A DNA stretch of 64,000 bases from Leptospira sp. (lineage in GTDB: Bacteria > Spirochaetota > Leptospiria > Leptospirales > Leptospiraceae), in NCBI GenBank assembly GCA_034439575.1, contig JAWXAQ010000015.1, positions 32,001-96,000 of the forward strand, given 5' to 3'. The notes below the pieces were generated by a model. That model had not been told where the DNA came from and did not search any database. It saw nothing but the letters and a program-made list of their open reading frames with translations. This document shows, piece after piece, positions 1,714 to 64,000 of the stretch. A program made the position numbers and the translations under genes. Within the stretch, counting starts at the first letter, position 1. Every line of letters begins with the position of its first letter.

Positions 1714-3570
1714 CTAATTCTTTAATCCATATACTTTCATTGAAAATTCTTTTCCTCTGATTTCCATTTCGCCCAATGGAGAAAGCGTCAATTTGTTCTC
1801 TTGCGAAAGTTTTTCATATGCCACTTCGCTCAGTAGAATTGGCGAATTTACCTCTTTCGTTTTCCCTTCTAACCTAGAAGCTGTATTTACTGTATCTCCG
1901 ATCAATGTTCCATCCATCCTAGACTCTTGGCCAATGGTTCCGATCAAAACTTTGCCATAATGAATTCCGATACCGATTTTTATTTCGGTTTCGCCTGCCT
2001 CTATTCTTTTTTTATTGAATTCACTCAATCCGATTAACATATCATTGGCGGCACTCAAAGCATTGTCCGAAGATTTTGGGAAAAATGCCATTATCGAATC
2101 ACCAATGTATTTATCGATGTATCCTGATTTTCTTTCAATGGATGGCGCAGTAAATCTCATAAACGCATTTAAAAAATCAAAAGTGAGCCGCGGTGTTAGT
2201 TTTTCTGAAATAGATGTAAATCCCCTAATGTCCAAAAACAAAACTGCCACTTCTCCATCCACTGCGTCACCTAACTGTACTTCCCTTACATCTGACTTGT
2301 TTAATAACGGAATGATTTGAGAAGGAAAAAATCTAGAAAACGAATCTGTTAAACTACGTTGTTCTTCCAAAGATTTAATTTGGAGTGCTGCTTTTTCTTT
2401 CTGAATGATATTGATTCGATCTGCCAAAGATAGGGATAAAAATATTGCTTCAAATACAGAACCAAATTGGAGTGAGTAGTTTGTAAAAAAGTGATATGGT
2501 AAAATTCCGAAATTTCTAAGTCCTACGATTACAGCCCCGATCAAAACAATGAATGAACCTAACAAAAAGAATCGAGCTTGTTCATATCCTTTTGTCCATG
2601 CGTATGATGAAATAAGAAATAAAGTTACTGACGAAACGAGCGTTAATATAAGTCCAATAGATATAGAAATTCTATAATAACCAAAAAATGCGGGAAGTAT
2701 AATCATTGCACTGAGTATAGCAATTGTTTTGAGATAAACATTTAATCTTGGCATTCGTTCTCTGGCTTCCACAAATTTGCCAGCAAACAATACGGCGAAT
2801 GTATTTACTAGACCGATTGAAATTGGAAACGAATAATCTGCTAACTTTGGATATTCGGGGAATATATATGCATGCGTATAACCCCATATACCTGATTGCA
2901 CAAAACTTAGGAAAAATATGTATAGAATATAATACAAATAACTTCTATCTCTAATACTTAAGTACAAAAATAAATTGTAAAAGAAAACGACTCCCATCAC
3001 TCCGAAATAAGCTCCGAAGAGAGTTGTTTTTAAACTCTCCTCCTCTAAGTAAGAATTCTTTTCCCAAAGTGTAAGTGGAAGCAATAAAGAACCTTGGCTT
3101 TCAAAACGAAAAATCAAAGTGTAAACTTTTTCTTTTTCCAAAGAAACATCAAAAATGAAATTTCTATGTTTCAAAAATCTTTCTGTAATAGCTAACTTTC
3201 TACCTGTAAACAATTTAGCGACGATTTGGTTATCTTTCAGAGTATAAAAATCTATAGAATCAATCAAAGAAACTAATTCCAACCAGAGGCTTTGGTCTTT
3301 GCCAGATTTGATTGTCCATTTCAACCAGAAGGCAGAACTAGAATATCCAAAGCCGATAGACTCACCTAAATTTTTTTTCCCTTCCCCATTCTCAAATTTT
3401 TTTAGTATAGTATCCAATGATTCTGATTTCGATTTGTCTTCTATGTATTCTACATAGGTCGCTAAATTGAGTTTTGATTCATTTCCAGTCCATTCGATAA
3501 TGGGATTCGCGATTAAATTATGAGAGTAAAGAATAAATAATGAAATAAAGTAAAAATAATTTTTCAACAT
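1714..3570 (-). CDS. 7TM-DISM sensor class III adenylate cyclase
   Basis: Signal peptide, DISM extracellular domain (GFGYSSSAFWL), 7 TM helices; cyclase motifs LFLDIRGFT, DKYIGDSIM, GDTVNTASRLE. Confidence 0.9.
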   Translation of the reverse strand: MLKNYFYFISLFILYSHNLIANPIIEWTGNESKLNLATYVEYIEDKSKSESLDTILKKFENGEGKKNLGESIGFGYSSSAFWLKWTIKSGKDQSLWLELVSLIDSIDFYTLKDNQIVAKLFTGRKLAITERFLKHRNFIFDVSLEKEKVYTLIFRFESQGSLLLPLTLWEKNSYLEEESLKTTLFGAYFGVMGVVFFYNLFLYLSIRDRSYLYYILYIFFLSFVQSGIWGYTHAYIFPEYPKLADYSFPISIGLVNTFAVLFAGKFVEARERMPRLNVYLKTIAILSAMIILPAFFGYYRISISIGLILTLVSSVTLFLISSYAWTKGYEQARFFLLGSFIVLIGAVIVGLRNFGILPYHFFTNYSLQFGSVFEAIFLSLSLADRINIIQKEKAALQIKSLEEQRSLTDSFSRFFPSQIIPLLNKSDVREVQLGDAVDGEVAVLFLDIRGFTSISEKLTPRLTFDFLNAFMRFTAPSIERKSGYIDKYIGDSIMAFFPKSSDNALSAANDMLIGLSEFNKKRIEAGETEIKIGIGIHYGKVLIGTIGQESRMDGTLIGDTVNTASRLEGKTKEVNSPILLSEVAYEKLSQENKLTLSPLGEMEIRGKEFSMKVYGLKN

Positions 3571-4210: not shown

Positions 4211-7024
4211 ATGTTAAAAAAAAGATATATTATGAAAGTGAAATATTTCCTTTTTATTACTTTCTTATATAACTCCATCATTTTTAGCCTCAATGGTGAA
4301 ACTCTTTCATCAAATAAAGTAAAAATCGGTTTATTTCTGCCCTTAAAAGGGACCAATGTCGATAAAGCTGGCGAAGAAAAACTAAGACAAACACTGACCT
4401 CCATTTTAGAAAAAGCAGGTTACAAAGTTAGTATTTCCAATGAAGATCACGATGTTGCCATCAACTCTGCTGATAATTATTTCATTGATGGATACTATGA
4501 AACTAGTCCGACATGGAATGTATATGGACAAATATACAAACCAGAATCGGGTGAAATCATAGATGCCCACAACCAAACAAATATTATATCAGATTTGGAA
4601 GGAGTTTCTATTGATCCCGAAGAAACTAAAACATCAAACGAATTTATTTGGAATGAATTTTCGAAAAAGATACTTTTACGCCTTCGCACAAACCAAAAGC
4701 GGATTAGAAAAATTCATAATATTCAAGAATTTGTCTTAAACTCACCCATAAAAGATTATAGAAAATTTACGATTGCAAAAGAAGAAGAAGAAAAAGCAAA
4801 AACTGAAGTTTTCCAATTATTAGCTGAACCTAAAATCACAGTCGCATCAAACGTCATTCGTGACGCAGATAAACAACCAGTTTCAGTAACAGTGATAAAC
4901 TCTAAACAAATTTTACTTTCAGGTGCGAGAACAGTTAACGACTTGCTCATGATCTATGTACCTGGTTATTTTAAAGTAGAAGACCAAGATGATTCGATAG
5001 CCGGATTTCGAGGATTAGCTCCTGATTCTAACTCAAAGGTTTTATTATTGTTAGATGGTGTAAATATGAATACGGAATGGCAGTTTGGTCCTCCTGATTC
5101 GATTATCAACAGTATGAATCTAGAATATATAGAACGGATTGAAGTGATTCGTGGTCCTGGTTCTGTAACGCTCGGCCAAGGTGCATTACTTGGTGTTATC
5201 AATATCATCACAAAAAATAGTCAATCAAATCCCAATACGTCTTTACAAGTGGGAACGGGAAAAGATGGATATCGCAGTTATAATATTCAATCTGGAAGTC
5301 ATGGCAAATTAGTTCCTGAATTAAAAACTTACTTTTATATTTCTAAAATGCAATACGACGGACAAAAAATTCGTAGTGAAGGTTGGGCAAAACAAAGGGC
5401 TTATGAAGGAGTTGAAATCAATGGTATCGAACAAATATATGATCCTCTCGAAAAACAAGCGTTAAAAACCAGTTCATTTTTAGGAGGTGACTTTTATACA
5501 AATATTGCTTCGGCAAGTGGTAATAAATTAGAAAGAAATCAAAATGAAACAATGCATGGCATCATTGAATACAAAGGTCTGAAAGTTAATACAATGTTTG
5601 CTGATCAAAAACGAGATCTCTATAATTTTTATAGAGATAGAAATGAAGTTACGAACAAAATCCGAAATGGAGCCTTATCTTATCAGCATCAATTTTCAAA
5701 TACTTTGAATTTGACACTTAAAACTTTTTATACCCAAGATGATTTTGGATTTCAATCACATAGAGGTGTAACCTTAGCTGGCACAAGAGAAAATCGATAC
5801 GGCGGTTCAGCCATACTAAATTGGAATATTACAAGTAAGAACAATTTGGCGCTAGGTATAGAATATAGAAAGTATGATCTAGGTCAACCGGATGCCAATG
5901 GTAATAATTTTATCGTCAATAGAGCTGAAGCATCTAGTTTTTACAAACTTGGGGAAGGGATTCCGTTACCTTACCAAGTGAACGAAACGAATAAATTCGT
6001 TTTTACAAATACGATCCCCGTTGCGAGTTTTTTTGTTGAGAATGCACATAAGTATTCGGACAAATTGGATTATTTTGCTGCCTTTCGATATGATAAACAT
6101 CCATACTGGGGTTCAAATATTTCGCCAAGAATAGGAACTATATTTTCACCTAACAAAGATCTCAAATTTCGATTTTCTTACCAAGAAGGATTTCGGGGTG
6201 CTGTAGGTGTATCTTATACCGGAGGGTATCAAAAAGATGGACTCCTAAGAAATGATAACTTTAATCAGGTGGAAGTTTCACAAATTCCAAATGTGGACAT
6301 CAATAACAAGCCGACAATTTTTCAAAATATCCCACAGGCAAAGCCTGAAAAAATGAGAAGTTTAGAATTTGCAACAAAATACAAACTCACATCAAAATTC
6401 AGCCTTGATGGAGTATTGTTTTATAATATGATACAAAATGTTATCGATGTAGGAGTCATTTACCCAAACCCAGATATCAACAAAACGCCTAACATAGGAA
6501 CAGACGAACCAGGTGATTGGAAAGGATATTTTTTCTTTCGAAATACTCCAGGTTTACTCAGACAAGGTGGCGCGGAAGTCACAGCATCTTATGATCATAA
6601 ATTTTTTCATATCGGTTTAAGTCATTCTGCCGTGAAAGTTTTAGGAGCCAGTACAGAACTGCATTCCTCACAGTATTTAACAAGTGATACTCGGCACAAA
6701 CATTTCAAAGCTTATCCTGAAAACATAACACGTGCCAATTTACAATTTTTCCCTTGGGAAAAGTTGGCCGTCGGTTTAAATCATTTGTACTATTATAATT
6801 GGTTTGCCCCGACTGGTTCTAATGTTCGCGGCATGCATATGTTAAATGGGGGCATTCAATATGCAATATCAGAATCAATTTCCATTATTTTGAATGTCAA
6901 AAATATATTAGATTCCAAAAACTTATATCCAATCAATAGTATTGCTGGAGATGTTTCTTTAGCTGCTGGAACTCCTTCTTATGAAGGAAGAACTTATTGG
7001 TTCCAATTGCGGGCTGTTTTTTAA
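4211..7024 (+). CDS. TonB-dependent receptor with extra N-terminal domain (start may be 4232)
   Basis: Plug motifs (PVSVTVI, VLLLLDGV, IERIEVIRGPGSVTLG), beta-barrel, NILD motif, terminal Phe. Confidence 0.9.
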   Translation: MLKKRYIMKVKYFLFITFLYNSIIFSLNGETLSSNKVKIGLFLPLKGTNVDKAGEEKLRQTLTSILEKAGYKVSISNEDHDVAINSADNYFIDGYYETSPTWNVYGQIYKPESGEIIDAHNQTNIISDLEGVSIDPEETKTSNEFIWNEFSKKILLRLRTNQKRIRKIHNIQEFVLNSPIKDYRKFTIAKEEEEKAKTEVFQLLAEPKITVASNVIRDADKQPVSVTVINSKQILLSGARTVNDLLMIYVPGYFKVEDQDDSIAGFRGLAPDSNSKVLLLLDGVNMNTEWQFGPPDSIINSMNLEYIERIEVIRGPGSVTLGQGALLGVINIITKNSQSNPNTSLQVGTGKDGYRSYNIQSGSHGKLVPELKTYFYISKMQYDGQKIRSEGWAKQRAYEGVEINGIEQIYDPLEKQALKTSSFLGGDFYTNIASASGNKLERNQNETMHGIIEYKGLKVNTMFADQKRDLYNFYRDRNEVTNKIRNGALSYQHQFSNTLNLTLKTFYTQDDFGFQSHRGVTLAGTRENRYGGSAILNWNITSKNNLALGIEYRKYDLGQPDANGNNFIVNRAEASSFYKLGEGIPLPYQVNETNKFVFTNTIPVASFFVENAHKYSDKLDYFAAFRYDKHPYWGSNISPRIGTIFSPNKDLKFRFSYQEGFRGAVGVSYTGGYQKDGLLRNDNFNQVEVSQIPNVDINNKPTIFQNIPQAKPEKMRSLEFATKYKLTSKFSLDGVLFYNMIQNVIDVGVIYPNPDINKTPNIGTDEPGDWKGYFFFRNTPGLLRQGGAEVTASYDHKFFHIGLSHSAVKVLGASTELHSSQYLTSDTRHKHFKAYPENITRANLQFFPWEKLAVGLNHLYYYNWFAPTGSNVRGMHMLNGGIQYAISESISIILNVKNILDSKNLYPINSIAGDVSLAAGTPSYEGRTYWFQLRAVF

Positions 7025-7073
7025 AAGAAACATTATGGATAACAATTAACCACACATATTTATTCATTTTGAA

Positions 7074-8036
7074 TTAATTCCATTTCGGAAAAAATCCTAT
7101 TTCTCCTTGAACATTTAAATCATGGGCTGGAACTACTTTCAATGTTTTATCTTTTTCCATTAATTGGTTCACACGACTGATTTCTTTTCCAACACTCATT
7201 GGATCATAATCAACTAACAAACGAGCCCCACGAGGTTTATGCGAAAGTGATTGAAATCCTCGCAAATCCCAGGTTACATCGCCAGTGAAAAAATAACGTC
7301 GGCCATCCTTAAGATTTAAAAATAAACCGAGTGATCCCGCACTATGTCCTTTCATATTTACCAAAACAATGGATCCATCACCAAACCAATCTGTACTTTC
7401 AGTATAAGATTCATATTGTATTGGATTCAATTTTATATAATTCCATTTGACCGCCTCACCATCAAATTGCGAAGGAACGTAACCCTTCAATATCGAAGTT
7501 TCTGATAATTCTTCTTTTAATGTAACAATTTCTGCCTTTGGGAAATCTTTAATAGCGCTTGCATGATCCCAGTGTAAATGGGATATGAAAATCGTTTTAA
7601 TCTGATCTGGCATAATGCCATTGGCAACTAACTTATCTACTGCGTTATCCTCTATTTCATAGGAAAGTAATAATTTTAAAAACCATGGAAATTCTTTAAA
7701 CTGTTCATCAATTTTCTTGCCAAGTCCCGTATCAAAAAGCACCATCCCCGAAGGATGTTTTATTAGTATCGCTGAATGAGAAATAGTATGAACATTAAAA
7801 ACATTTCCTCCTTCAAATACGAATGCTTCTGAAGTCTTTGCCTCGCCTGTTTTTATAATCGAAAAGGAAATATCAGTTTTTGGAACCGTTTGAACAAACT
7901 TGTTTTCGGTTTGATTCATTTCAATTTTAAGTTTCGGATAACCCAATAGGTAAAATGTGATAAATGTAAACAAACCTATTACACCTAACAATAACTTGAT
8001 TTTGAAATTCCTTTCTTTCATATATTTATCCTTCAT
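7074..8036 (-). CDS. MBL-fold metallo-hydrolase, AHL-lactonase-like, N-terminal signal/TM
   Basis: LFDTG, SHLHWDH, GHSAG, TGD, PAHD metal ligands. Confidence 0.85.
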   Translation of the reverse strand: MKDKYMKERNFKIKLLLGVIGLFTFITFYLLGYPKLKIEMNQTENKFVQTVPKTDISFSIIKTGEAKTSEAFVFEGGNVFNVHTISHSAILIKHPSGMVLFDTGLGKKIDEQFKEFPWFLKLLLSYEIEDNAVDKLVANGIMPDQIKTIFISHLHWDHASAIKDFPKAEIVTLKEELSETSILKGYVPSQFDGEAVKWNYIKLNPIQYESYTESTDWFGDGSIVLVNMKGHSAGSLGLFLNLKDGRRYFFTGDVTWDLRGFQSLSHKPRGARLLVDYDPMSVGKEISRVNQLMEKDKTLKVVPAHDLNVQGEIGFFPKWN

Positions 8037-8623
8037 TCATTAAATTCATTTTTTATTAGTAAATCCGCTGTTTTTTTAGCAAGCCTAAGTGGCTCCGCTG
8101 ATTTTTGCAATTTTGCAAGTAACAAGGCTCCCTCCCACAAGGAAAATAAGGATACAGCAATGGAATTTGCTTTTTTTAATGATGCACCATATAACATTAA
8201 ATAAGTTTCAAAACCCTTAATCCACTCATTATAAATCTTTAAACAAGTTTCCGACACAATACCTGGATGAGTTGTTGATTCAAGAGCTGTAATCGCTATT
8301 GGGCAACCTTTTTTAAAATTACTTTCTACAATTCTTTTTTCAAGAGCTTGAAATATTAAAGCCGCGGCTTTTGAAGGATTTTTATTATTTTTTAAAATTT
8401 CAGAGAAAACCAAACTCATTTCTTTTCCTGAGTGTTCTAATGCCAAAGCAGTTAATTCATCTTTTCCACCTGGAAAGTGAAAGTATAAAGAGCCTTTTGG
8501 AGACTTTGCTAATTTTGTAATATCATTCACACCAGTGGCGAGATAGCCATTTTCTTCCAAAGCTAAAGCGGTAGCTTCTATCATTTTTTGACGGGTATTT
8601 GTCCCTTTGTTGCCCACAATCAC
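8033..8623 (-). CDS. TetR family regulator (LmrA/YxaF-like)
   Basis: HTH KGSLYFHFPGGKDEL; GCPIA and WEGALLLAK in the C-terminal domain; 4-bp overlap with the downstream gene. Confidence 0.9.
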   Translation of the reverse strand: MIVGNKGTNTRQKMIEATALALEENGYLATGVNDITKLAKSPKGSLYFHFPGGKDELTALALEHSGKEMSLVFSEILKNNKNPSKAAALIFQALEKRIVESNFKKGCPIAITALESTTHPGIVSETCLKIYNEWIKGFETYLMLYGASLKKANSIAVSLFSLWEGALLLAKLQKSAEPLRLAKKTADLLIKNEFNE

Positions 8624-8634
8624 AAAACAAAATT

Positions 8635-8660
8635 AAAATATAGACCGGTCAACATATTTT
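8635..8660. promoter_or_regulatory. Putative TetR operator between the divergent genes
   Basis: AAAATATAGACCGGTCAACATATTTT with palindromic core GACCGGTC; resembles the B. subtilis LmrA/QdoR box. Confidence 0.6.
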
Positions 8661-8697
8661 TCTTGACCAAAGGATTTTAATTTCATTCAATGCTCAT

Positions 8698-9579
8698 ATG
8701 TTAGAAGATGTTACAGCATGGAAAGACAAAGGTTCTATATTCAAATTTAAAAGTTTTGATATTTTCTATTTCCAAGAAGGCCAAGGTGAAAATTTACTTA
8801 TCATACATGGTTATCCATTTAATAGTTTTGAATGGAAATCGGTGATTGATGATCTTAAAAAAAGTTATAGATTAACAATTATTGATCTATTGGGCATGGG
8901 GTTTTCTGATAAACCCGAAAATCACAATTACACTTTTCAAGAACATTGTGAAATTATAAATGAATTACTAAGTTTTCTTAATATTAAAGAAACCCATATT
9001 TTTTCTCATGATTTAGGTGTTAGTATTGTCCAAGAATTATTAGCTCGAGATCTTGAAAATAAAAACAAGTTTACAATAAAATCATCAGCCTTTATGAATG
9101 GAGGATTATTTTCGGATGTTTATCGACCAAGACTCATTCAAAAACTTTTATCGCAATCCCCGACCTTCATTGGAAAATTTTTAAGTAGAATCATTAGTAA
9201 AGAGAACGTTTTTAAATCAGTGCGCCAAGTCTTCGGCCCAAACACGCAACCAAACAATGATTTCATGGAAAAACAATGGGAGATTCTAAACTTCAAAGAA
9301 GGCAAAAATATAGCCTATCTAATCGGAAGAATGGTTTTTGCGAAAAAACATTTCCAATCTAGGTGGATTTATGCCATGCAAAATACAAAAATTCCGATAT
9401 GTTATATATGTGGCCCAGCCGATCCAAATTCGGGAAACCATATGGCAGAAAGATACAAAGAACTGATTCCGAATCCCCTTATTTTTCTATTAGGTGAACA
9501 AATAGGTCATTGGCCCCAAGTAGAAGATCCCAAAGGGACTTTATCCGCATATGAAACTTTCATCAAAAGAATTTCTTAA
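8698..9579 (+). CDS. Alpha/beta hydrolase, epoxide hydrolase/MEST-like
   Basis: HGYP oxyanion motif, DLLGMGFSDKP, Asp nucleophile SHDLG, GHWPQVE. Confidence 0.85.
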   Translation: MLEDVTAWKDKGSIFKFKSFDIFYFQEGQGENLLIIHGYPFNSFEWKSVIDDLKKSYRLTIIDLLGMGFSDKPENHNYTFQEHCEIINELLSFLNIKETHIFSHDLGVSIVQELLARDLENKNKFTIKSSAFMNGGLFSDVYRPRLIQKLLSQSPTFIGKFLSRIISKENVFKSVRQVFGPNTQPNNDFMEKQWEILNFKEGKNIAYLIGRMVFAKKHFQSRWIYAMQNTKIPICYICGPADPNSGNHMAERYKELIPNPLIFLLGEQIGHWPQVEDPKGTLSAYETFIKRIS

Positions 9580-55296: not shown

Positions 55297-56211
55297 TCAG
55301 GATTTGCCCAAGAGATTTCGTAAGGCTTCACTGAGATTTTGAAACTGAAACTCATAACCTTCTTCTAGAAGTCTCTTAGGTGCAATGTATTGGCCTTCCG
55401 TAATCACTTGAGCTCCCTCTCCATATAATGCTTGTATAGCGATCGCAGGGATTTTGAAAATGGCTGGGCGAAAAAGTGTTTGTGCAAGTTGTTTAGAGAA
55501 TTCAAAATTACTGCAAGGATTTGGAGATACAATATTATAAGATCCTTCGGCAGATCTCTTGGTTAACAAATACAAGGTGGAAGATACAAAATCTCCGATA
55601 TGTATCCAACTAATTCCTTGTTCGCCTGTGGCAATTGGTCCACCTACACCAAATTGAAACGGAGGAATCATCTTTTCTAAGGCACCACCCTTTGGTGATA
55701 GGACGATGCCTGTGCGTAATACTATGACTCTGATGCCTTTTTCTTTGAGGGGCTCGACTTCTTTTTCCCAATCTACACAAATGGAAGCTAAAAAATCCGA
55801 GCCAGGGACTTGGGTTTCATCATATGGTGCATGTCTTGAAGCAGACATACCGTAATATCCTACGGCGGATCCTTGCAAAAAAACTTTTGGTGGGTTTTTA
55901 CAATCGCGGATCCTTGCAACTAGACCCCGAGTAAAATCTATTCGTGAAATACGAATTAAATGTTTTCTTTCATTTGTCCACCGAACACCCGCTATTGGTT
56001 CACCAACTAAATTGATCATGGCATCTAGTCCTTCCAATTGTTGGGAAGTGGGAATTGTCGTGGTGACCAGTTCGATTTCTGAAAATTGTTTTAAATCATT
56101 TGGTAGTTCTGTTCTGCGTGAAAAAACTCTAAATTGGTGACCACGTTTAATCCAATACGGGATAAGCTCACTACCGATTAAACCTGTGCCACCGAGTATG
56201 CCAATTTTCAT
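55297..56211 (-). CDS. TIGR01777/YfcH family NAD-dependent epimerase-like oxidoreductase
   Basis: GGTGLIG, INLVGEPIA..RWT, SAVGYYG, RTGIVL, SWIHI. Confidence 0.92.
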   Translation of the reverse strand: MKIGILGGTGLIGSELIPYWIKRGHQFRVFSRRTELPNDLKQFSEIELVTTTIPTSQQLEGLDAMINLVGEPIAGVRWTNERKHLIRISRIDFTRGLVARIRDCKNPPKVFLQGSAVGYYGMSASRHAPYDETQVPGSDFLASICVDWEKEVEPLKEKGIRVIVLRTGIVLSPKGGALEKMIPPFQFGVGGPIATGEQGISWIHIGDFVSSTLYLLTKRSAEGSYNIVSPNPCSNFEFSKQLAQTLFRPAIFKIPAIAIQALYGEGAQVITEGQYIAPKRLLEEGYEFQFQNLSEALRNLLGKS

Positions 56212-56282
56212 ATGTCTAGTTTCCAATCAGAAAGAAAAAAGAAGTAGAACTTTTTAGGAGAGAATCAATATTTTTAGAATTC

Positions 56283-56864
56283 ATGCGGATCGCTACAATT
56301 ATCCCACTCATTGTTTGGACATTGGCCATAATACTTGGCAATTATCATTTGGTTTCTTCAACGAATCAAAAAATAGAAACATATCATAACTCCCCACCTT
56401 TTCGAATCGGTGCCTTGTTCCATGGAAAAGATTTATCCAATCTGTTAGACTCTGATCCCAATACGATTTGGGAAAGAAAAGAAAAACAAGAAGGCCAAGC
56501 CGATTTTTTTCTCGAACTCAAACTCACACATTTTTGGTCGGGAAATGAATTCAGTCCCTTTCCAGTAAAAGAAATAGTATGGGTTTCATGTAACGGACGT
56601 ACAATCCCTGAATTTACTGCCAAATTGATTTTAAGAGAAGCAATCAATGTGGATAAAGAACTCCGTCTACCAATTGACACCTTCATCCAAACTTTTGTTT
56701 CAAAAGATAAAAATCAAACTTATATCACGAAACCCATCCTTAACACACAACCTTTAAAAAAAGAATCCGTTTACCCCAATGGAATCTATATTTATACATT
56801 GGAAATGAGTTTACCAAAACCAATTTCACCTAACGATTGCTTTTCGGAAATAAGGATAAACTAA
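56283..56864 (+). CDS. Exported/anchored hypothetical protein (discoidin-like motif)
   Basis: N-terminal hydrophobic helix; LLDSDPNTIW; 7 bp upstream of the AAA gene. Confidence 0.65.
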   Translation: MRIATIIPLIVWTLAIILGNYHLVSSTNQKIETYHNSPPFRIGALFHGKDLSNLLDSDPNTIWERKEKQEGQADFFLELKLTHFWSGNEFSPFPVKEIVWVSCNGRTIPEFTAKLILREAINVDKELRLPIDTFIQTFVSKDKNQTYITKPILNTQPLKKESVYPNGIYIYTLEMSLPKPISPNDCFSEIRIN

Positions 56865-56871
56865 GAATACT

Positions 56872-58455
56872 ATGGAATTAAAAAATTCTTCAAAAAAAGT
56901 ATCTCAATCACCTACCATTCCTCAAAAAAAAGAAGGAACAAAAAAATTTGATATTGAAAGCCTTTTAGAAGAAGGACCTCTTCCCATTCATTCATCTATG
57001 GATGAAACCTTGGGCTTAGATGAAAAACTCAGAAAGGCTTATTTCTGGATTATAAATAATGCTATCATAAATCCATTTTATGACATCGAATACAATGGTA
57101 AATCTCCAGTTCAATTTATCATCGGTGATTTAAAAACAAAAATTGTTCTGCCATCTAATCAAAGTTATTCTAGTTTTGTCTTGTTACCACTTTTGACACT
57201 GGTGGTTCGAGGGAAATGTTTACTTGTCGGTGGACCTGGTCGGGGAAAAACAGCATCAGCTATTCTTATGGGAGTGATCGCAGGTTATTCTTTAAAAGAT
57301 ATCAAACGAGCCATACAACACGGTCAACCTCAAATGACGATCACTGATTTACTAGGTAACCCATTACCTTCCGATTTGATGAATGCCAAAAGTATGGATG
57401 AAATTAAAATCTCTTGGAGAAAATGGCTCGGGATGCGGGTCAAAGTCATAGATGAATACAATCGTATCCCTACTCGTACACAATCTGCCTTATTAACTGT
57501 TCTAGGTGACAACTATGCCGAGTTATATGATCAGGTTTTTGATTGCCCTGAAGCCGCATGGTATCTAACAGCTAACGATGATGCAGGTGGCGGAACATAC
57601 CAAGTTATAGAAGCATTAAAAGATAGGATTGATATTGTAGTTAAGGCATTACATTTCAACACACGCTTTATAAAAGAATTATTACAACGAGTGGAAGAAA
57701 ATTTTAAACCAGAAGCAATGGTTCCAAAGGAAATTATTTTTTCTGAAGAAGAAATTCAAAAGATCAATGATCAAATTCGAATGATTGAATTTCCAGAACC
57801 ACTTAGACGGCGTATGGAATTCTTTGCCGCTCAGTTCGAATTTTTTGAAACTGGCGGGGAACAGATAGAATACAAAACTAAAGATACAGTCAAGTTATCA
57901 ATGGCGGATTTTTCGAGCCTTGCGGCTCTTGACCAGGGCAAAGACAAAAAAAAAGATTTAGGATCACAAACAAAAAACGGTCTTTCTGTTAGAGCCATTT
58001 TTACTTGTTTGAATTATGCTAAGGCATTAGCTTATTTTAGGGGATTAACGGCTGTCACACTGGATGATTTAGCTCATGTTTTACCTTTTGTATTACATGA
58101 TAAATTAGTTCAAAATTCTGATTCTCCATTTTTTGAAGATTCTGGTCATGCAGTATACCGAAGTGATAAAGTTAGCTGGATACGAAAATTATTTGAACTT
58201 TCTTGTGCTGAATATGATCGACTAGGCTTGGACAAAAATGATCCAGTCGCTAATCTTTCCTCACTCTTTGAAGGCGGGCTCGAAGGTTTAAGTCTTTCCC
58301 AAACAAAAGAACGCATCGTCGCAATAGAAAAAGAAGTCGAGACAATCAGTAAACAGAGAAAAATTTACGGTCATGTATATGATGATCTTCTAAAACTTAA
58401 ATACCTTCACCAAAGATATACAAACTACGAACGTTGGTTAGAGGAAAACGGATGA
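56872..58455 (+). CDS. MoxR-like AAA+ ATPase
   Basis: Walker A GGPGRGKT, Walker B VIDEYNR, TQSALL, sensor-I TAN, ALKDRID Arg finger, SVRA sensor II. Confidence 0.9.
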   Translation: MELKNSSKKVSQSPTIPQKKEGTKKFDIESLLEEGPLPIHSSMDETLGLDEKLRKAYFWIINNAIINPFYDIEYNGKSPVQFIIGDLKTKIVLPSNQSYSSFVLLPLLTLVVRGKCLLVGGPGRGKTASAILMGVIAGYSLKDIKRAIQHGQPQMTITDLLGNPLPSDLMNAKSMDEIKISWRKWLGMRVKVIDEYNRIPTRTQSALLTVLGDNYAELYDQVFDCPEAAWYLTANDDAGGGTYQVIEALKDRIDIVVKALHFNTRFIKELLQRVEENFKPEAMVPKEIIFSEEEIQKINDQIRMIEFPEPLRRRMEFFAAQFEFFETGGEQIEYKTKDTVKLSMADFSSLAALDQGKDKKKDLGSQTKNGLSVRAIFTCLNYAKALAYFRGLTAVTLDDLAHVLPFVLHDKLVQNSDSPFFEDSGHAVYRSDKVSWIRKLFELSCAEYDRLGLDKNDPVANLSSLFEGGLEGLSLSQTKERIVAIEKEVETISKQRKIYGHVYDDLLKLKYLHQRYTNYERWLEENG

Positions 58456-59402
58456 TACCAACAGTTTGGAAAGAATTCTTAAAACAAGAAAAGAATCTAT
58501 TAAACCAAATTGTAATTTTTTATAAACAAAATCATTCTAATTTTCAAACCGAATTAGTTGGTGAATTTTTAATTCCATACTATACGGCTCTAGGAAAATC
58601 CATTCCAGAACCAAAATCTTTTGAGGAAGTACAAGAAAGTTTTGAAATGTTGATCAAACTGATTCAAAAAGGATATCTCCGAGATCCTAAAGGTCAAAAA
58701 GAAATCCTCTTTTTTAAATTGATAGAATCAATGAGTAAACCGCTCACCGAGAACTTTTTGTTATCTATTAGTTATTTGATAAATGTTTCATCTAAATTAA
58801 AAGGAGTTTCAGAAGAAAAATTCTTAAACCAACTTTTATTATTAAGACAGCATATCGATACATTAGAAATTTTTAAACTAACTTTGATTACATTGATTTG
58901 GGTGGATGGTCATCCAGAATACCGCATTGAAGCTTTAAATGTTTATAAAAAATTACCAAAACCCATTCAAATAGAATTCTCAAAATCATTTTATGATTCC
59001 CCAGAAGAATTTCATCAAACACTCACAAAAAATCCTTTTGGTATCAAAGATATTAAACAGGAAATAGATATTAAATATAAAATAATATCATCTCATCCAT
59101 TACTCGGTGGTGAATTTAAAATCCAACCTTTGTTAAATGAATTTGAAAATAATTTTTACGCAATTGTGGGAACTGAATCCTACCAAATTCATTTTGATTT
59201 ATTTGGATCCACGGTTCATCCTGTAGGTTTAAATTTAAAAAGCAAGCTAGGAAAACTTTCCACCCCATTTTGGAAAAATATCATTATCAAATTTTTTAAT
59301 GAAAATCAAATCACTTCCGTTATTGAAACGGAAAATTTTGCACTTATCACTTTAAACGAATCCTATTCAGTTTATCTTTTCTATAGAGCTGCAAAAAAAT
59401 GA
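58452..59402 (+). CDS. Hypothetical protein of the AAA/vWA operon
   Basis: ATGA overlaps at both ends; helical N-terminal half, beta-rich C-terminal half (LGGEF..QP, DLFG). Confidence 0.75.
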   Translation: MIPTVWKEFLKQEKNLLNQIVIFYKQNHSNFQTELVGEFLIPYYTALGKSIPEPKSFEEVQESFEMLIKLIQKGYLRDPKGQKEILFFKLIESMSKPLTENFLLSISYLINVSSKLKGVSEEKFLNQLLLLRQHIDTLEIFKLTLITLIWVDGHPEYRIEALNVYKKLPKPIQIEFSKSFYDSPEEFHQTLTKNPFGIKDIKQEIDIKYKIISSHPLLGGEFKIQPLLNEFENNFYAIVGTESYQIHFDLFGSTVHPVGLNLKSKLGKLSTPFWKNIIIKFFNENQITSVIETENFALITLNESYSVYLFYRAAKK

Positions 59403-61102
59403 ATGTCGTTGAACAGTGGCAGGCGAAATGGGAAGAATCCTTATCCCTTTGGAGTGATTTTGTAAAATTATCCGATCCAAAATTTTTAGTCACAGCAAAA
59501 GATGAAAAAGAAGAAGGCGATTTTGGAAGTTTCGCTGCAATTCGGTTAGCTGATCATAAAATTATACTTTCTGTTCCCAAAATACAAAAATACAACTTAG
59601 AAGATTATCCTTTAGAAATCATGGGGCATGAGATTGGTCATCATGTTTATTGTCCGGGCGATTTAGCAGATCATGGAAAATTAATTTATTTAATTCGCAC
59701 TGCGATGCCAAGGTACGAACATTTGGCTCCTATGATTGTCAACATTTATGAAGACCTATTTATCAATGATAAACTTAAAAGACAACATAACTTGCGTATG
59801 GAAGAAGTTTACCAAAAGATTGGCAAACAAAATGATCCTTTTTGGAATTTTTATATGCGGACTTACGAAATTTTGTGGGCATTGCCAGAAGATACACTCA
59901 CGAGTGGGAAATTAGAATCTAACATCATGTCTGATGCCATTTTGGTAAATCGTATAGTTCGGAATTATTCAAACGACTGGATCATAGGGGCTTTCGATTT
60001 TGGAAACATTTGTTTTCCCTATTTTATCGGAAATCAAACTAATTCATCTGTTTCGCCGATGAATATTTTTCATGATACGAAAGATATAGGTCGCGGTAGT
60101 GAAATTCCAAGTGGGATTACCAATGTAGATATAGAATCCGTGTTAAATGAAGGATTAGATGCATCCCTAGGAAGGGATAAAACATCAGAGAAAAAAGATT
60201 CCAACTTAAAGCCAAATCAAAACATAACACCTGCTCAATATTCTGCTATCGGAGAGGCTCTTGGCATAAAGGCAAGTATTTCCGAAATGGCATATAAATA
60301 TTATAAAGAACGCGCACTTCCCTATCTCGTTACATATCCAAGCCTAATCACACCTGGCGCACCTGAAAAAATATTAGAGGGAACTGATTTATGGGACATT
60401 GGCTCCCCCATTGAAAATATAAATTGGTTTGAATCCCTGCTAAAGGGACCTGCCGTAATTCCTGGTTATACGACAGTAGAAAATTTTTACGGTGAAATGC
60501 CTTCTTTCGAAATAGAATCAAACCCTATAGATTTGGATCTCTTTGTTGACTGCTCGGGTTCTATGCCGAATCCACAAACCGAATTATCTTATCTTACACT
60601 TGCGGGAACCATCATTGCTTTATCAGCCTTACGTGTTGGATCAAATGTTCGGGTTACCTTATGGTCAGGAGAAAATGAATATTTTACGACTGATGCCTTT
60701 ACTAAAAATGAAAAGTCCATTTTAGAAATTTTAACTGGATATATTGGCGGTGCCACTTGTTTTCCTTTGGACCTTTTGAAAAAAGCATATGCTAATACAA
60801 CTCCAACGAAAAGAAAAACACATATACTGATCATATCTGATGAAGGCATTGATACTATGTACAATCAAAAATATCCTGTCGAAACTCGAAGTTTCGTAAA
60901 ATCAATGTTAGAGAATGCCGGTGGAGGTGGATCAATGGTTTTAAATTTATATTCGCCGACGTATCATAAAGAAATTCAAGAAATGAATGAATCAGGTTGG
61001 AATATCTTTCGCATTTCAAACTGGGAAGAACTTGTGGAATTCAGTAGAAACTTTGTTAAAAAAACTTATGAAAGAAATCAGACACTACATCAAACGCGTT
61101 AA
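59399..61102 (+). CDS. HEXXH metallopeptidase-like + vWA domain protein
   Basis: GHEIGHH..NIYEDLFIN; MIDAS VDCSGSM, GGAT, IISDEG. Confidence 0.88.
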   Translation: MNVVEQWQAKWEESLSLWSDFVKLSDPKFLVTAKDEKEEGDFGSFAAIRLADHKIILSVPKIQKYNLEDYPLEIMGHEIGHHVYCPGDLADHGKLIYLIRTAMPRYEHLAPMIVNIYEDLFINDKLKRQHNLRMEEVYQKIGKQNDPFWNFYMRTYEILWALPEDTLTSGKLESNIMSDAILVNRIVRNYSNDWIIGAFDFGNICFPYFIGNQTNSSVSPMNIFHDTKDIGRGSEIPSGITNVDIESVLNEGLDASLGRDKTSEKKDSNLKPNQNITPAQYSAIGEALGIKASISEMAYKYYKERALPYLVTYPSLITPGAPEKILEGTDLWDIGSPIENINWFESLLKGPAVIPGYTTVENFYGEMPSFEIESNPIDLDLFVDCSGSMPNPQTELSYLTLAGTIIALSALRVGSNVRVTLWSGENEYFTTDAFTKNEKSILEILTGYIGGATCFPLDLLKKAYANTTPTKRKTHILIISDEGIDTMYNQKYPVETRSFVKSMLENAGGGGSMVLNLYSPTYHKEIQEMNESGWNIFRISNWEELVEFSRNFVKKTYERNQTLHQTR

Positions 61103-61628
61103 CGACTTCCCAGTGTATCAGGTTGATTTGAATACGATCTCTGCTCAAAGTTTATGGAATGATGTATTGATTCGAACCAAAAACCAAATCAAGTTTTATA
61201 ACATTTTGAATGTCATTGAATGGGATAAAGTTAAAAAACAACCAAATTTGCTTGGACTTCATTTAGTGTTATGTTATTTCTTTGCCGATCCAAATTGGAA
61301 AGAAGAGAATATAGACGTTGAAAAATTGATAGCCTATCTTAAAGATAAATTACCAATTCTTGCAACCAATGTAAGTCCCTATACAGAATGGATTAGCGAT
61401 GGTGAAAGATCAGAAGAATTAGTGCGATCACTGTTAAACGGATTAGATTTACTTCCAGCCAACGAAACAGAAAAATATTTCAAAGATAGACTTAGATCCA
61501 TAGATACTTTAGAACGTATTCGAATATTAGAAGAATCTAAAAAAGCCCAGGAACGCGCACAAGAATTACTTAGAAAAATCAAACAGGCTGAGGAAGAAGA
61601 AGCCGCATCAAAATACAATAGAGAATAA
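61068..61628 (+). CDS. Hypothetical helical protein with C-terminal coiled coil
   Basis: Overlaps the vWA gene end; DGERSEELVR, ends EEEAASKYNRE. Confidence 0.75.
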   Translation: MKEIRHYIKRVNDFPVYQVDLNTISAQSLWNDVLIRTKNQIKFYNILNVIEWDKVKKQPNLLGLHLVLCYFFADPNWKEENIDVEKLIAYLKDKLPILATNVSPYTEWISDGERSEELVRSLLNGLDLLPANETEKYFKDRLRSIDTLERIRILEESKKAQERAQELLRKIKQAEEEEAASKYNRE

Positions 61629-61629
61629 A

Positions 61630-63006
61630 GTGGACCCGGCTCCTTATTTTAAAAATACCCCACTCATGAAAGCGGAATGGTTTGATTCGCTTTCAAAAAC
61701 CATTCTTTCTGAATTTGCACCAAAATGGAATACGGTCATTGGGGATCGAATCACAGCTAGCGATTATACATTTGTAAAAAATTACGAAGAGGAACTGTAT
61801 GCAAAGAGATCGTTTCATACCCATCATCCAAATGAATTTATAATTAATTTTATCAGATCACTTCGGTTTTATTCCGCATATTTTTATGATCGACTGAAGG
61901 ATATTTCTTTACCAAAAGAGTTTTCAAAAATTCCTTTTATGACAAGGGAAGATTTACAATTTAAAATCACTGAAATTCTTCCCACAAAGGATAGCCTGAA
62001 CCGACTCATAGTAAATCCAACATCTGGAACCACAGGCACTCCCATATTAGCACCAAACCACCCTAAGTCTATAGGATGTTATGTGCCATTTATTGAATAT
62101 TCCCTCAATGCACATGGAGTATCTACGGTTCATAATTTTAAAACCACAACAGGAATCCAATTGTGTTATCAAAATCAAACAATTGTATATGGAACTTGTC
62201 ACTCGCTAGCCGAAGGTGCCAAGTTTGCTAAAATAAATTTGAAAGCCTCTGAATGGAAGTCTACTTCTGACATAAATAATTTCATAAATGAACAATCACC
62301 TATCTTTCTTTCTGGTGATCCGTATTCTTTTGAAGAAGCTTTGCGCATGAAAATAAATTTTAAACCAAAAGCGATTCATTCTACGGCTCTTGAATTAACA
62401 CCAGCACTGCGATCAGCATTGGAAAATTTTTTCAAATGCTCAGTTATCAACTTCTATTCGTTAAACGAAACTGGGCCGATCGCCTATTCATGTCCAAAGA
62501 ATCCAGAATGGATGCATATATTACCTCATGATATTTTTATAGAACTCATTGATACTGAAGGCGAGAATTCCGATTTCGGCGAGATAACCATCACAGGTGG
62601 AAGAAATCCATATTTACCCTTACTTCGTTATAAAACTGGGGATTGGGGAAATTTAAAATTTGGTGCTTGTGATTGCGGAGAAAAATCTCCAAAATTAAAA
62701 TTATTACAAGGTAGAAAGCCAATTTCATTTACTGATACTCTGGGCAATAAAATCAATCCAGTCGATGTCTCTCGAATTCTCCGGATGGAATCCAATATTT
62801 TACGTCACCAATTCATTCAAAAGAAAAAAAAGCATTATCAGATCAATTTATCTATCATGGTTCCGTTTAACACCTTACATATTCAAGAGTTAAAGAATAA
62901 ATTCTATGAATTGTTAGGATTTGATGCCGAAATTTTATTAAATTTTGATTTACCAAATGATGGAACAAAACTTCCAGTCTTTATAAATGAGTTAGAGACT
63001 ATATGA
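61630..63006 (+). CDS. Phenylacetate-CoA ligase/CapK-like adenylate-forming enzyme
   Basis: PTSGTTGTP, FYSLNETG, LLRYKTGD, QGRK ANL motifs. Confidence 0.85.
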   Translation: MDPAPYFKNTPLMKAEWFDSLSKTILSEFAPKWNTVIGDRITASDYTFVKNYEEELYAKRSFHTHHPNEFIINFIRSLRFYSAYFYDRLKDISLPKEFSKIPFMTREDLQFKITEILPTKDSLNRLIVNPTSGTTGTPILAPNHPKSIGCYVPFIEYSLNAHGVSTVHNFKTTTGIQLCYQNQTIVYGTCHSLAEGAKFAKINLKASEWKSTSDINNFINEQSPIFLSGDPYSFEEALRMKINFKPKAIHSTALELTPALRSALENFFKCSVINFYSLNETGPIAYSCPKNPEWMHILPHDIFIELIDTEGENSDFGEITITGGRNPYLPLLRYKTGDWGNLKFGACDCGEKSPKLKLLQGRKPISFTDTLGNKINPVDVSRILRMESNILRHQFIQKKKKHYQINLSIMVPFNTLHIQELKNKFYELLGFDAEILLNFDLPNDGTKLPVFINELETI

Positions 63007-64000
63007 GATTCAACCATGGATTTATATTAGGAAAATTTTATCCGCCGCATAAAGGACACCTACATTTAATAAATGAAAGTAAAAAATTATGCAATCGCCT
63101 AACGGTTGCCATCTCTAGTTTGAGATCAGAATTGATACCAGGCGAATTAAGGTATTTATGGTTAAAGGACTTAGTTAAAAATGAAAATATAGAAATCAAA
63201 TGGATCCAAGATGAAAATCCACAGTTCCCAGAAGAAGATATTCATTTTTGGGATATTTGGAGAAGTTCCATATTACAATCCTTAGATGCACCTATAGATG
63301 TTTTATTTTCATCCGAAAATTATGGCGAGAAACTGAGCGAAGTTCTTGGAGTAAAACATAGGTGTATAGATTTAGAAAGGAATCAAGTTCCTATATCTGC
63401 TACGCAAATTAGAAATCATCCCACAAAATATTGGGAATACATTCCTGAAAAAATAAGACCTTACTTTTTAAAACGAATTGTATTAACAGGCCCAGAATCA
63501 ACAGGCAAATCTACTCTATCAAAAATCCTTGCCAGTCATTTTGAAACAGAATTTGTTCCGGAATTTGCGAGAACCTACTTAGACAAAATGGGAAGATATG
63601 TCATAAAGGATGATATTTTACAAATTGGCATTGGTCATTTAGAATCAGAATTAGAAAAGGCGACCAAGGCAAATCGTATTCTTTTTCTGGATACAGACCA
63701 TTTAACAACACTTATATATTCAAATTTTTATTTTAAATCTTGTCCGGATTGGGTAATCAAACGAGCTAAAGGATTAAAGTATGATGTTTCTTTATTTATG
63801 GATATTGATATCCCTTGGGTCGCAGACCCGCAAAGAGAGTTAGAAAATAGTCGCGATGAAATGAAAGAGATATTCACTCATGAAATGGAAAAAGTAGCTA
63901 GAGAATTTCATATGATAAGCGGGACTTTTGCGGAAAGAGAAAATCAAGCAATAGAAATTGTAAACCAAGTTCTAAATCAGCCGATGAATGTTTGTTATTT
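63003..64000 (+). CDS. nadR: NadR-type NMN adenylyltransferase/ribosylnicotinamide kinase without HTH (3' truncated by window; absent from the ORF track)
   Basis: Translated by hand: MRFNHGFILGKFYPPHKGH (HxGH), FSSENYG, ISATQIR, VLTGPESTGKST, FLDTD; ATGA overlap with the upstream gene. Confidence 0.85.
   Translation, partial: MRFNHGFILGKFYPPHKGHLHLINESKKLCNRLTVAISSLRSELIPGELRYLWLKDLVKNENIEIKWIQDENPQFPEEDIHFWDIWRSSILQSLDAPIDVLFSSENYGEKLSEVLGVKHRCIDLERNQVPISATQIRNHPTKYWEYIPEKIRPYFLKRIVLTGPESTGKSTLSKILASHFETEFVPEFARTYLDKMGRYVIKDDILQIGIGHLESELEKATKANRILFLDTDHLTTLIYSNFYFKSCPDWVIKRAKGLKYDVSLFMDIDIPWVADPQRELENSRDEMKEIFTHEMEKVAREFHMISGTFAERENQAIEIVNQVLNQPMNVCY

Follow-up and report, generated by a model that had tools for sequence, protein, structure and literature searches.

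A widespread two-module bacterial gene system that joins a MoxR-vWA pair to a PaaK-type ligase and NadR, as seen from a Leptospira operon

The seven-gene operon and its products

We analyzed a stretch of 64,000 nucleotides (nt) from Leptospira sp. (GenBank assembly GCA_034439575.1, contig JAWXAQ010000015.1, positions 32,001 to 96,000 of the forward strand), hereafter the window. From position 56283 to 64000, it carries seven co-oriented, tightly packed open reading frames (ORFs) on the plus strand, denoted g1 to g7, which encode, in this order, a protein with a hydrophobic N-terminus, a MoxR-type AAA+ ATPase, an orphan protein, a vWA protein with an additional zincin-like domain, a helical protein, a PaaK-type adenylate-forming ligase and a NadR protein. 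The operon is the Leptospira version of a two-module gene system that is found in many bacteria, has not been described before and varies the MoxR-vWA theme. Its five-gene core includes two orphan families, has an ATPase that is 46-67% identical across at least 12 phyla (as named in the sequence records), and is inherited together with a dedicated NadR/PnuC.

The listing of ORFs bears out the preliminary description of this region, made from the sequence, as seven co-oriented, tightly packed genes, and the support is for a single tight operon with the domains named above. All three of the ATGA overlaps that had been reported were found, namely, g2/g3 at 58452, g3/g4 at 59399 and g6/g7 at 63003; g1 and g2 are separated by 7 nt, and g5 and g6 by 1 nt. 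The description of every junction as an overlap or a gap of 7 nt or less thus holds apart from a correction at g4/g5, where there is no such gap but an overlap of 35 nt. This follows from placing the g5 start at the ATG at 61068, because R10 and P15, numbered from this codon, are conserved across phyla in the alignment of homologues; the alternative start, GTG at 61113, would give a 10-nt gap to g4. The g7 ORF ends at 64034, that is, 34 nt past the end of the window, and is followed by a convergent gene. Within the cluster, no plus-strand terminator-like sites were seen, promoter-like matches were no more frequent than in shuffled sequences, and no RNA holder is listed for the 7.7-kb stretch.

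The earlier domain assignments (MoxR AAA+, HExxH plus vWA with its metal ion-dependent adhesion site (MIDAS), PaaK-type ligase, NadR lacking the helix-turn-helix (HTH) domain) were confirmed by profiles and motifs, whereas g1, g3 and g5 match no family in Pfam, NCBIfam or PADLOC scans. The g1 gene (56283-56864) encodes 193 amino acids (aa), and the sole basis for its label as an exported protein is the hydrophobic N-terminus read from the sequence. Its homologues, searched for with jackhmmer, are confined to five Leptospira loci among the 59 loci of the survey described below. As part of the conserved system, g1 was rejected because it has no homologue outside Leptospira in these loci, and we treat it as a Leptospira-specific addition to the core.

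The 527-aa ATPase encoded by g2 (56872-58455) carries N- and C-terminal extensions and matches AAA_3 (PF07726; 27.7 bits, a small margin above the cut-off of 27) and AAA_lid_2 (PF17863; 32.6 bits, cut-off 22.7), with an E-value of 2e-7 against the PDB entry 2r44. Both the Walker A (GGPGRGKT) and the Walker B (VIDEYN) motifs can be read from its translation. The following gene, g3 (58452-59402), encodes a 316-aa orphan that was modeled by AlphaFold2 with a predicted local distance difference test score (pLDDT) of 95.2 and a predicted template modeling score (pTM) of 0.90 as an N-terminal helical repeat followed by a C-terminal beta domain. A Foldseek search of the PDB with this model found nothing at E <= 0.001 (best E 0.018), and the best fit in VIA wide (Z 5.5, root-mean-square deviation 3.7 over 98 residues) was to WD40 blades and involved residues ~200-315 only. 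The profile and structure searches that had been proposed for the two uncharacterized proteins, g3 and g5, thus yielded confident models and no convincing relative in the PDB.

The g4 protein (59399-61102) combines an N-terminal HExxH (zincin-like) domain with a C-terminal vWA domain that has a complete MIDAS. In 12 homologues, the residues H77, E78, H81 and H82 of the HEIGHH motif are invariant, and so are D384, S386, S388, T453 and D481 of the MIDAS (DCSGSM ... T ... D). The vWA part scores below the cut-off of VWA_2 (PF13519; 18.1 bits, cut-off 27), which matches seven of the 12 homologues at E <= 1 (best 7.6e-4). The N-terminal domain matches no Pfam family; in particular, DUF2201_N (PF13203) matches neither g4 itself nor any of the 12 homologues at E <= 1. 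An Atlas feature search with the N-terminal part returned CobT and DUF2201_N at 0.85-0.89, to be taken as leads only. The profile made from alignment A1 had no match among PDB sequences at E <= 1.

The last gene, g7 (63003-64000 in the window, continuing to 64034), has a full ORF of 343 aa and encodes a NadR with NMN (nicotinamide mononucleotide) adenylyltransferase and ribosylnicotinamide kinase domains. It aligns with positions 2-318 of the 325 in TIGR01526 at 223.9 bits (cut-off 341) and reaches 162.9 bits (cut-off 201) against the full-length NadR model; since the latter match begins only at position 65 of 411, g7 lacks the HTH domain. Both catalytic domains are present (AAA_28, 108 bits, and CTP_transf_like), with an HxGH-type motif and a P-loop, GPESTGKS, in the translation.

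Conservation of the core and co-inheritance with NadR

The distribution of the system was surveyed in one genome per species, which gave 59 loci (numbered below with the prefix L); phylum names are those of the record titles, taken as given and unchecked. By tblastn, g2, g4, g5 and g6 occur in this order in most of the 59 loci, and clustering and hidden Markov models (HMMs) identify the gene between the ATPase and the vWA gene as a homologue of g3, a fast-evolving family that HMMs detect in 53 of the loci. Loci that carry the core AAA-g3-vWA-g5-ligase in syntenic order have titles with at least 12 different phylum names: Spirochaetota, Acidobacteriota, Actinomycetota, Chloroflexota, Cyanobacteria, Pseudomonadota, Planctomycetota, Verrucomicrobiota/Kiritimatiellae, Myxococcota, Bacteroidota, Gemmatimonadota and Riflebacteria. 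Outside Leptospira, 27 loci have full flanks, and 23 of these contain all five core genes, the exceptions being L026, L028, L031 and L063. Gene by gene, these 27 loci include AAA in 26, g3 in 26, vWA in 27, g5 in 25 and the ligase in 25, along with NadR in 18, PnuC in 15 and a radical SAM gene in seven. The gene neighborhood is therefore conserved well beyond close relatives, the lack of which had been named in advance as the finding that would speak against a common system. The ATPase is 46-67% identical to its counterparts in other phyla.

Among 7999 candidates scored, 1182 are homologous to g4 at E <= 1e-3; the close homologues carry Leptospira species names. Within the family, the distribution is patchy: 15 of 21 genomes of the own genus have the system, and none of 21 in either of two other large genera.

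The preliminary description regarded NAD+ (nicotinamide adenine dinucleotide) salvage as attached to the operon, and this link is now strongly supported: NadR, usually with PnuC, is a co-inherited component of the system and no passenger. Among 41 related genomes that were drawn, the distributions of g4 and NadR are identical: both are present in 22 genomes (18 of 24 from the genus, three of 16 from the neighboring family, and the Leptospira genome of the window itself, G000), in every case on a single contig and 3-5.5 kb from each other. Because the kin in this draw are not independent, we examined a second lineage, the betaproteobacterial family to which the L023 genome and genome G041 belong. 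Here, the system is present in five of 101 genomes, and a two-domain NadR is present in eight, that is, in all five genomes with the system versus three of the 96 without it (these 96 include G125, flagged as unpublished). In four of the five, NadR resides on the same contig within ~5 kb of the system.

Across phyla, NadR adjoins the system in 18 of the 27 full-flank loci, and among the nine loci where it does not, eight genomes encode a two-domain NadR elsewhere, the exception being the divergent L063. Where NadR is unlinked, it lies next to PnuC in all nine regions that were fetched (from the genomes of L015, L026, L028, L031, L033, L040, L042, L051 and L036). The PnuC proteins of other phyla pass TIGR01528 (106 bits, cut-off 42). 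In G000, the only PnuC gene (G000:C16:314202-314759, L069) is unlinked to the operon. The g7 gene is the only NadR-type gene of this genome; it is not the sole route to NAD, because NadA and a NadD-like gene are encoded in G000 as well. In L023 (Paucimonas lemoignei), an NrtR-type regulator (6601-7287), with Nudix and NrtR winged-helix domains, is encoded directly upstream of the AAA gene; NrtR is a regulator of NAD metabolism.

Several genomes reveal how the gene set comes apart. In the L028 and L024 genomes, the locus consists of AAA-g3-vWA only, and the g5-ligase pair is found elsewhere, in an operon with PnuC/NadR; in the L031 genome, g5-ligase is on a third contig; and in the L036 genome, a radical SAM gene of the type found with the system adjoins PnuC-NadR. 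From these split loci, and from the duplication and coupling of the g5-ligase pair described below, we conclude that the system comprises module A (AAA-g3-vWA, here g2 to g4) and module B (g5-ligase-(PnuC)-NadR, here g5 to g7). The split points to a ligase that works together with g5 and with the salvage of nicotinamide riboside (NR), rather than one that would simply be activated as a client by AAA+/vWA and the two uncharacterized partners, as the preliminary description proposed.

In some of the loci, the gene immediately upstream of g5 encodes a SPASM-type radical SAM enzyme. This enzyme is of the SPASM/twitch kind, with all scores below the cut-offs; such enzymes are usually maturases of peptides, proteins or cofactors, and the position of the gene would fit a role of g5 as an enzyme substrate.

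The ligase, g5 and its C-terminal tail

The g5 gene (61068-61628) encodes a 186-aa protein modeled with a pLDDT of 93.7 as a helical domain followed by a terminal helix of about 40 residues that ends in ...SKYNRE-COOH. Foldseek gave a best E-value of 0.62 for this model, in VIA wide with the whole model only the terminal helix (146-186) fits generic coiled coils (Z <= 5.6), and an Atlas feature search returned unnamed clusters only. In an alignment of 43 g5 sequences, the terminal Glu is nearly invariant, and the Glu of a loop, E133 in a P-x-G-E motif, is invariant. At E <= 1e-3, a profile made from this alignment retrieved 745 representatives from 1.84 billion proteins. The best 150 of these 745 are stand-alone proteins of 184-245 aa, of which 144 end in Glu, one in Asp, three in ...R-E-W and two in other residues; in 126, the last two residues are Arg-Glu. 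The possibility that residue -3 is always aromatic, as for a crosslink resembling that in pyrroloquinoline quinone biosynthesis, was rejected, given that this residue is Y or W in 81 of the 150 and M, V or A in 43.

The sequences ending in REW form a clade with 42-46% mutual identity (P0167, P0176 and P0243 among the representatives; L075, L076, L079 and L107 among the loci, at 1069-1671, 2785-3387, 7947-8570 and 4362-4949, respectively). Using the alignment of this clade, 80 metagenomic g5 loci were fetched, a sample biased toward the REW clade; among their 78 complete copies of g5, 74 end in Glu and four in REW. The ligase follows g5 in three of the four REW loci, so the idea that the encoded Trp replaces the ligase was rejected. 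In the fourth, L079, there is no ligase HMM match within ~8 kb of downstream sequence.

The ligase, g6 (61630-63006; 458 aa), is matched by PDB chains of PaaK, phenylacetate-CoA ligase, with E-values of 7.8e-16 (single sequence) and 1.6e-25 (profile), its nearest solved relatives being phenylacetate-CoA ligases and PaaK-like ester- or amide-forming ligases. Examination of the adenylation core (TSGTTG, the E of ETG, YxTGD, GR and the catalytic Lys) in 38 sequences showed that G133, G136, E280, Y334, D338, G361 and R362 are invariant and that 90% or more of the sequences retain T336 and K447. No Pfam family matches g6 at E <= 0.01, and g6 stays beneath every curated equivalog cut-off, with 94.3 bits (cut-off 300) for the DVU_1553 family ligase model, NF045666, and 59.7 bits (cut-off 700) and 30.4 bits (cut-off 646) for two phenylacetate-CoA ligase equivalogs.

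The ligase gene is closely coupled to g5. Both genes occur in 48 loci. In 32 of these, the distance from the g5 stop to the ligase start is between -15 and +25 nt, and in a further 12 it becomes negative solely through over-extension of the ligase ORF to its earliest possible start; in the remaining loci, the genes are separated by a 93-nt gap (one locus) or lie 1.5-4.5 kb apart (three loci). Furthermore, the two genes are duplicated as a tandem pair in L030 (11804-13782 and 14829-16960) and L034 (11725-13758 and 14586-16735), by record title one Verrucomicrobia and one Acidobacteria metagenome-assembled genome (MAG). A prediction of the g6-g5 complex from alignments A4 and A3 (score 0.02, mark 0.32) weighs neither way. 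Other arrangements of the ligase gene were also observed: L025 (2057-4732) has two ligase genes in succession, and in L164 (2076-3312), on a MAG contig, the ligase beside g5 is split into ORFs of 312 and 192 aa by a frameshift or an assembly error.

Relation to known systems and possible functions

Pairs of a MoxR AAA+ protein with a vWA protein, such as NorQ-NorD, CbbQ-CbbO, CoxD-CoxE and RavA-ViaA, are well known. In common with them, the system described here has a MoxR-type ATPase (AAA_3 plus AAA_lid_2) whose gene adjoins that of a vWA protein, and the MIDAS of the latter is intact. It differs in the invariant HExxH motif on the vWA protein, in two obligatory orphan proteins, and in its partners, an adenylating ligase and NadR/PnuC rather than a metalloenzyme client. 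The DUF2201-type proteins (a putative metallopeptidase domain, PF13203, plus a VWA-like domain, encoded beside AAA+ ATPases) also have an HExxH domain N-terminal to vWA, and an N..D..IN motif that follows HExxH is in register with g4 in an hhalign comparison with four of them, in which the alignment is weak (E 0.021, probability 2.3%, 80 columns). In contrast to these proteins, g4 is not matched by PF13203 and is ~100 aa longer; in three of the four spirochaete examples, an ORF of 379-393 aa is located directly upstream.

The combination of PnuC and NadR corresponds to the NR salvage III pathway, as outlined in PMC2330246: g7 has the adenylyltransferase and kinase domains, and PnuC precedes NadR in other phyla. 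The differences are that g7 scores below the equivalog cut-offs, lacks the HTH and is inherited with MoxR, vWA and ligase genes instead of by itself. The pearlins (TglA/PEARL; PMC9016710 and PMC11117183) similarly involve a small protein with a conserved C-terminus that is encoded together with a ligase, a peptidase-like domain and, sometimes, a SPASM radical SAM enzyme; the ligase there is LanB-like/tRNA-dependent, whereas here it is of the PaaK type, and g5 is a folded protein of ~190 aa. The two features of the present system that have no counterpart in pearlin pathways, nor in those of the LysW carriers, are the MoxR/vWA machine and NadR, so any resemblance would be one of functional analogy. 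LysW amino-group carrier proteins support carrier-templated biosynthesis on their C-terminus, with an ATP-grasp ligase. Full-text searches of the literature, with supplements outside their scope, returned neither a description of this gene set nor a matching characterized pathway, a match to which had been the other finding that could have undone the proposal of a new system.

We favor, with a probability of roughly one in three, a function in which the ligase acts on the g5 tail, in a reaction that is linked to nucleotides made from NR and supported by the MoxR/vWA-zincin machine. We infer each biochemical step of this scheme from the observed gene content, order and synteny, co-inheritance, module split, motif integrity and conserved tail. 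The ligase would adenylate a carboxylate of g5, most likely that of the C-terminal Glu, and the activated carboxylate would be joined to a partner that depends on imported NR processed by NadR (NMN, NAD or a derivative), with g5 acting as a carrier or handle. Module A would be an ATP-driven remodeling and processing machine of the MoxR-vWA kind: its MIDAS site may engage an acidic residue of g5, g5 may be repositioned or unfolded with the use of ATP, and trimming or release by the zincin domain may reset g5. The g1 gene is a lineage-specific extra.

Several observations weigh against such a function. In the REW clade, the ligase is kept in three of four loci, so the alpha-carboxylate of the Glu is not free in every g5 unless trimming removes the Trp, and the C-terminus of three actinobacterial copies of g5 is ...QV or ...YV. 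In Leptospira, PnuC is unlinked, and it occurs in all 24 genomes of the genus, including the six in which neither NadR nor the system was found. The myxobacterial variant (L061, L063) is divergent and has no recognizable g3; NadR is found in neither of these loci, nor in the L063 genome, the only one of the two genomes that was searched. We know of no precedent for a PaaK-type ligase that acts on a protein C-terminus, the contacts of g5 with the ligase and with the vWA domain are postulated, and the attachment of NMN or NAD to the Glu carboxylate comes without a specific linking chemistry. A more elaborate version, which we consider doubtful, has g5 as a reusable carrier: the ligase would load a building block on the terminal Glu, NadR-dependent NR or nucleotide chemistry, along with the SPASM radical SAM enzyme where there is one, would elaborate it, and the MoxR and zincin-vWA proteins would release the product and reset the carrier.

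The most serious competitor, which we hold to be somewhat unlikely, is a classical maturation chaperone of the NorQ/NorD, CbbQ/CbbO or CoxD/CoxE type, with g3 and g5 as assembly factors, that would insert a metal or cofactor into, or reactivate, a client; this client would be the ligase or NadR, and the ligase would act on a small aromatic or pyridine carboxylate, for instance, of the nicotinate type in NAD salvage. The MoxR-type ATPase and the complete MIDAS fit this explanation, as does the activity of the nearest solved relatives of the ligase on small molecules; a metabolic role agrees with the association with NAD genes (NrtR in L023 among them), and the high conservation of the AAA+ protein fits a housekeeping-like enzyme system. 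A chaperone of this kind leaves unexplained, however, the nearly invariant Arg-Glu at the C-terminus of g5, the strict coupling and co-duplication of g5 with the ligase and the invariant HExxH of the vWA protein, and it does not account for module B being apart from module A in some genomes. The C-terminal Glu at the end of a long solitary helix, the coupling of the ligase to g5, and the co-encoded AAA+ and HExxH proteins also call to mind Pup, the tag that PafA attaches through a C-terminal Glu. A tagging and proteolysis pathway of the Pup-PafA-Mpa kind, in which g5 would be joined to target lysines, with the vWA protein as a receptor, MoxR as an unfoldase and the zincin as a protease or de-tagging enzyme, nonetheless appears improbable: it offers no role for NadR, PnuC or the radical SAM enzyme, the folded, 186-aa g5 is bigger than the known bacterial tags, and to our knowledge, MoxR proteins have no unfoldase role in proteolysis. 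The Pup, PafA/Dop and Mpa families were absent from the results of the general Pfam and NCBIfam scans and fold searches, which included no dedicated comparison with these families; the C-terminal Glu is the one feature in common.

We judge a conflict, defense or stress system centered on NAD, as raised in the preliminary description, to be as improbable as tagging. Here, the MoxR-vWA-peptidase would sense an invader and trigger the ligase as an effector, with NR salvage buffering NAD. The patchy distribution (15 of 21, none of 21 and none of 21 in the three genera and five of 101 in the betaproteobacterial family) would suit such a role, and a GmrSD-type gene is found downstream of the system in L023 and trypsin-FHA genes in L018 and L019. 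Ternary conflict systems with a vWA-MoxR core and VMAPs, occasionally with a metallopeptidase domain attached, are on record (Kaur et al. 2020, PMC7159879). Against this reading, that article does not contain the words NadR, PnuC, PaaK or 'adenylat', and, unlike the systems described there, the operon encodes no VMAP, effector or NTPase sensor. PADLOC-DB 2.0 yielded no families for g1 to g6, and only two weak P-loop matches for g7 (E 2e-4 and 2e-3). No known effector domain is present, the genes flanking the system loci are mostly housekeeping ones, and the conservation of the core proteins greatly exceeds that of typical defense genes; on these counts, the defense interpretation is not supported. 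Finally, the genes could be mere neighbors, with NadR performing ordinary NAD salvage at the end of an unrelated MoxR/vWA/ligase operon. The unlinked PnuC of Leptospira, present throughout the genus, would agree with this, but the co-occurrence counts contradict it: the presence and absence of g4 and NadR are identical in the 41 genomes, the association recurs in a second lineage, 18 of 27 loci from different phyla have NadR next to the system and eight of the other nine have it elsewhere in the genome, and g5-ligase accompanies PnuC-NadR when the system is split. Coincidental adjacency is accordingly the least probable explanation.

If the link between the ligase-g5 pair, NR salvage and the MoxR-vWA machine is biochemical, it would represent an unrecognized use of NR, NMN or NAD, or an unrecognized class of MoxR-vWA clients, and would provide a function for hundreds of proteins annotated as 'VWA domain-containing' or 'hypothetical'. 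Were the reusable-carrier version true, the system would be a protein-templated route to a metabolite related to pyridine nucleotides, a cofactor or a protein modification in more than a dozen phyla. The saprophytic Leptospira with the system are non-pathogens and can be manipulated genetically.

Additional genes were noted in and around individual loci. In L036, a locus of a Planctomycetaceae MAG, the AAA gene and g3 are separated by a gene (7892-8914) whose 340-aa product has weak similarity to nucleoside 2-deoxyribosyltransferases (PF05014, 29.8 bits). A gene for an asparagine-synthase-type amidotransferase follows the ligase in L061 (13526-15439) and NadR in L030 (17473-19251), and the GmrSD-type restriction gene of L023 (17682-19361) is downstream of NadR. 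Two Blastocatellia MAG loci carry extra peptidase genes (L018, 4917-6545 and 11223-13010; L019, 16353-18194), namely, a subtilase gene inside the L018 cluster and a trypsin-like peptidase-FHA fusion after the cluster in both loci. Upstream of the Leptospira operon, a divergent gene on the minus strand (window positions 55297-56226) encodes an SDR-type (short-chain dehydrogenase/reductase) NAD-dependent epimerase with DUF1731, and a gene of this kind (cluster c26) occupies the same position in all five Leptospira loci.

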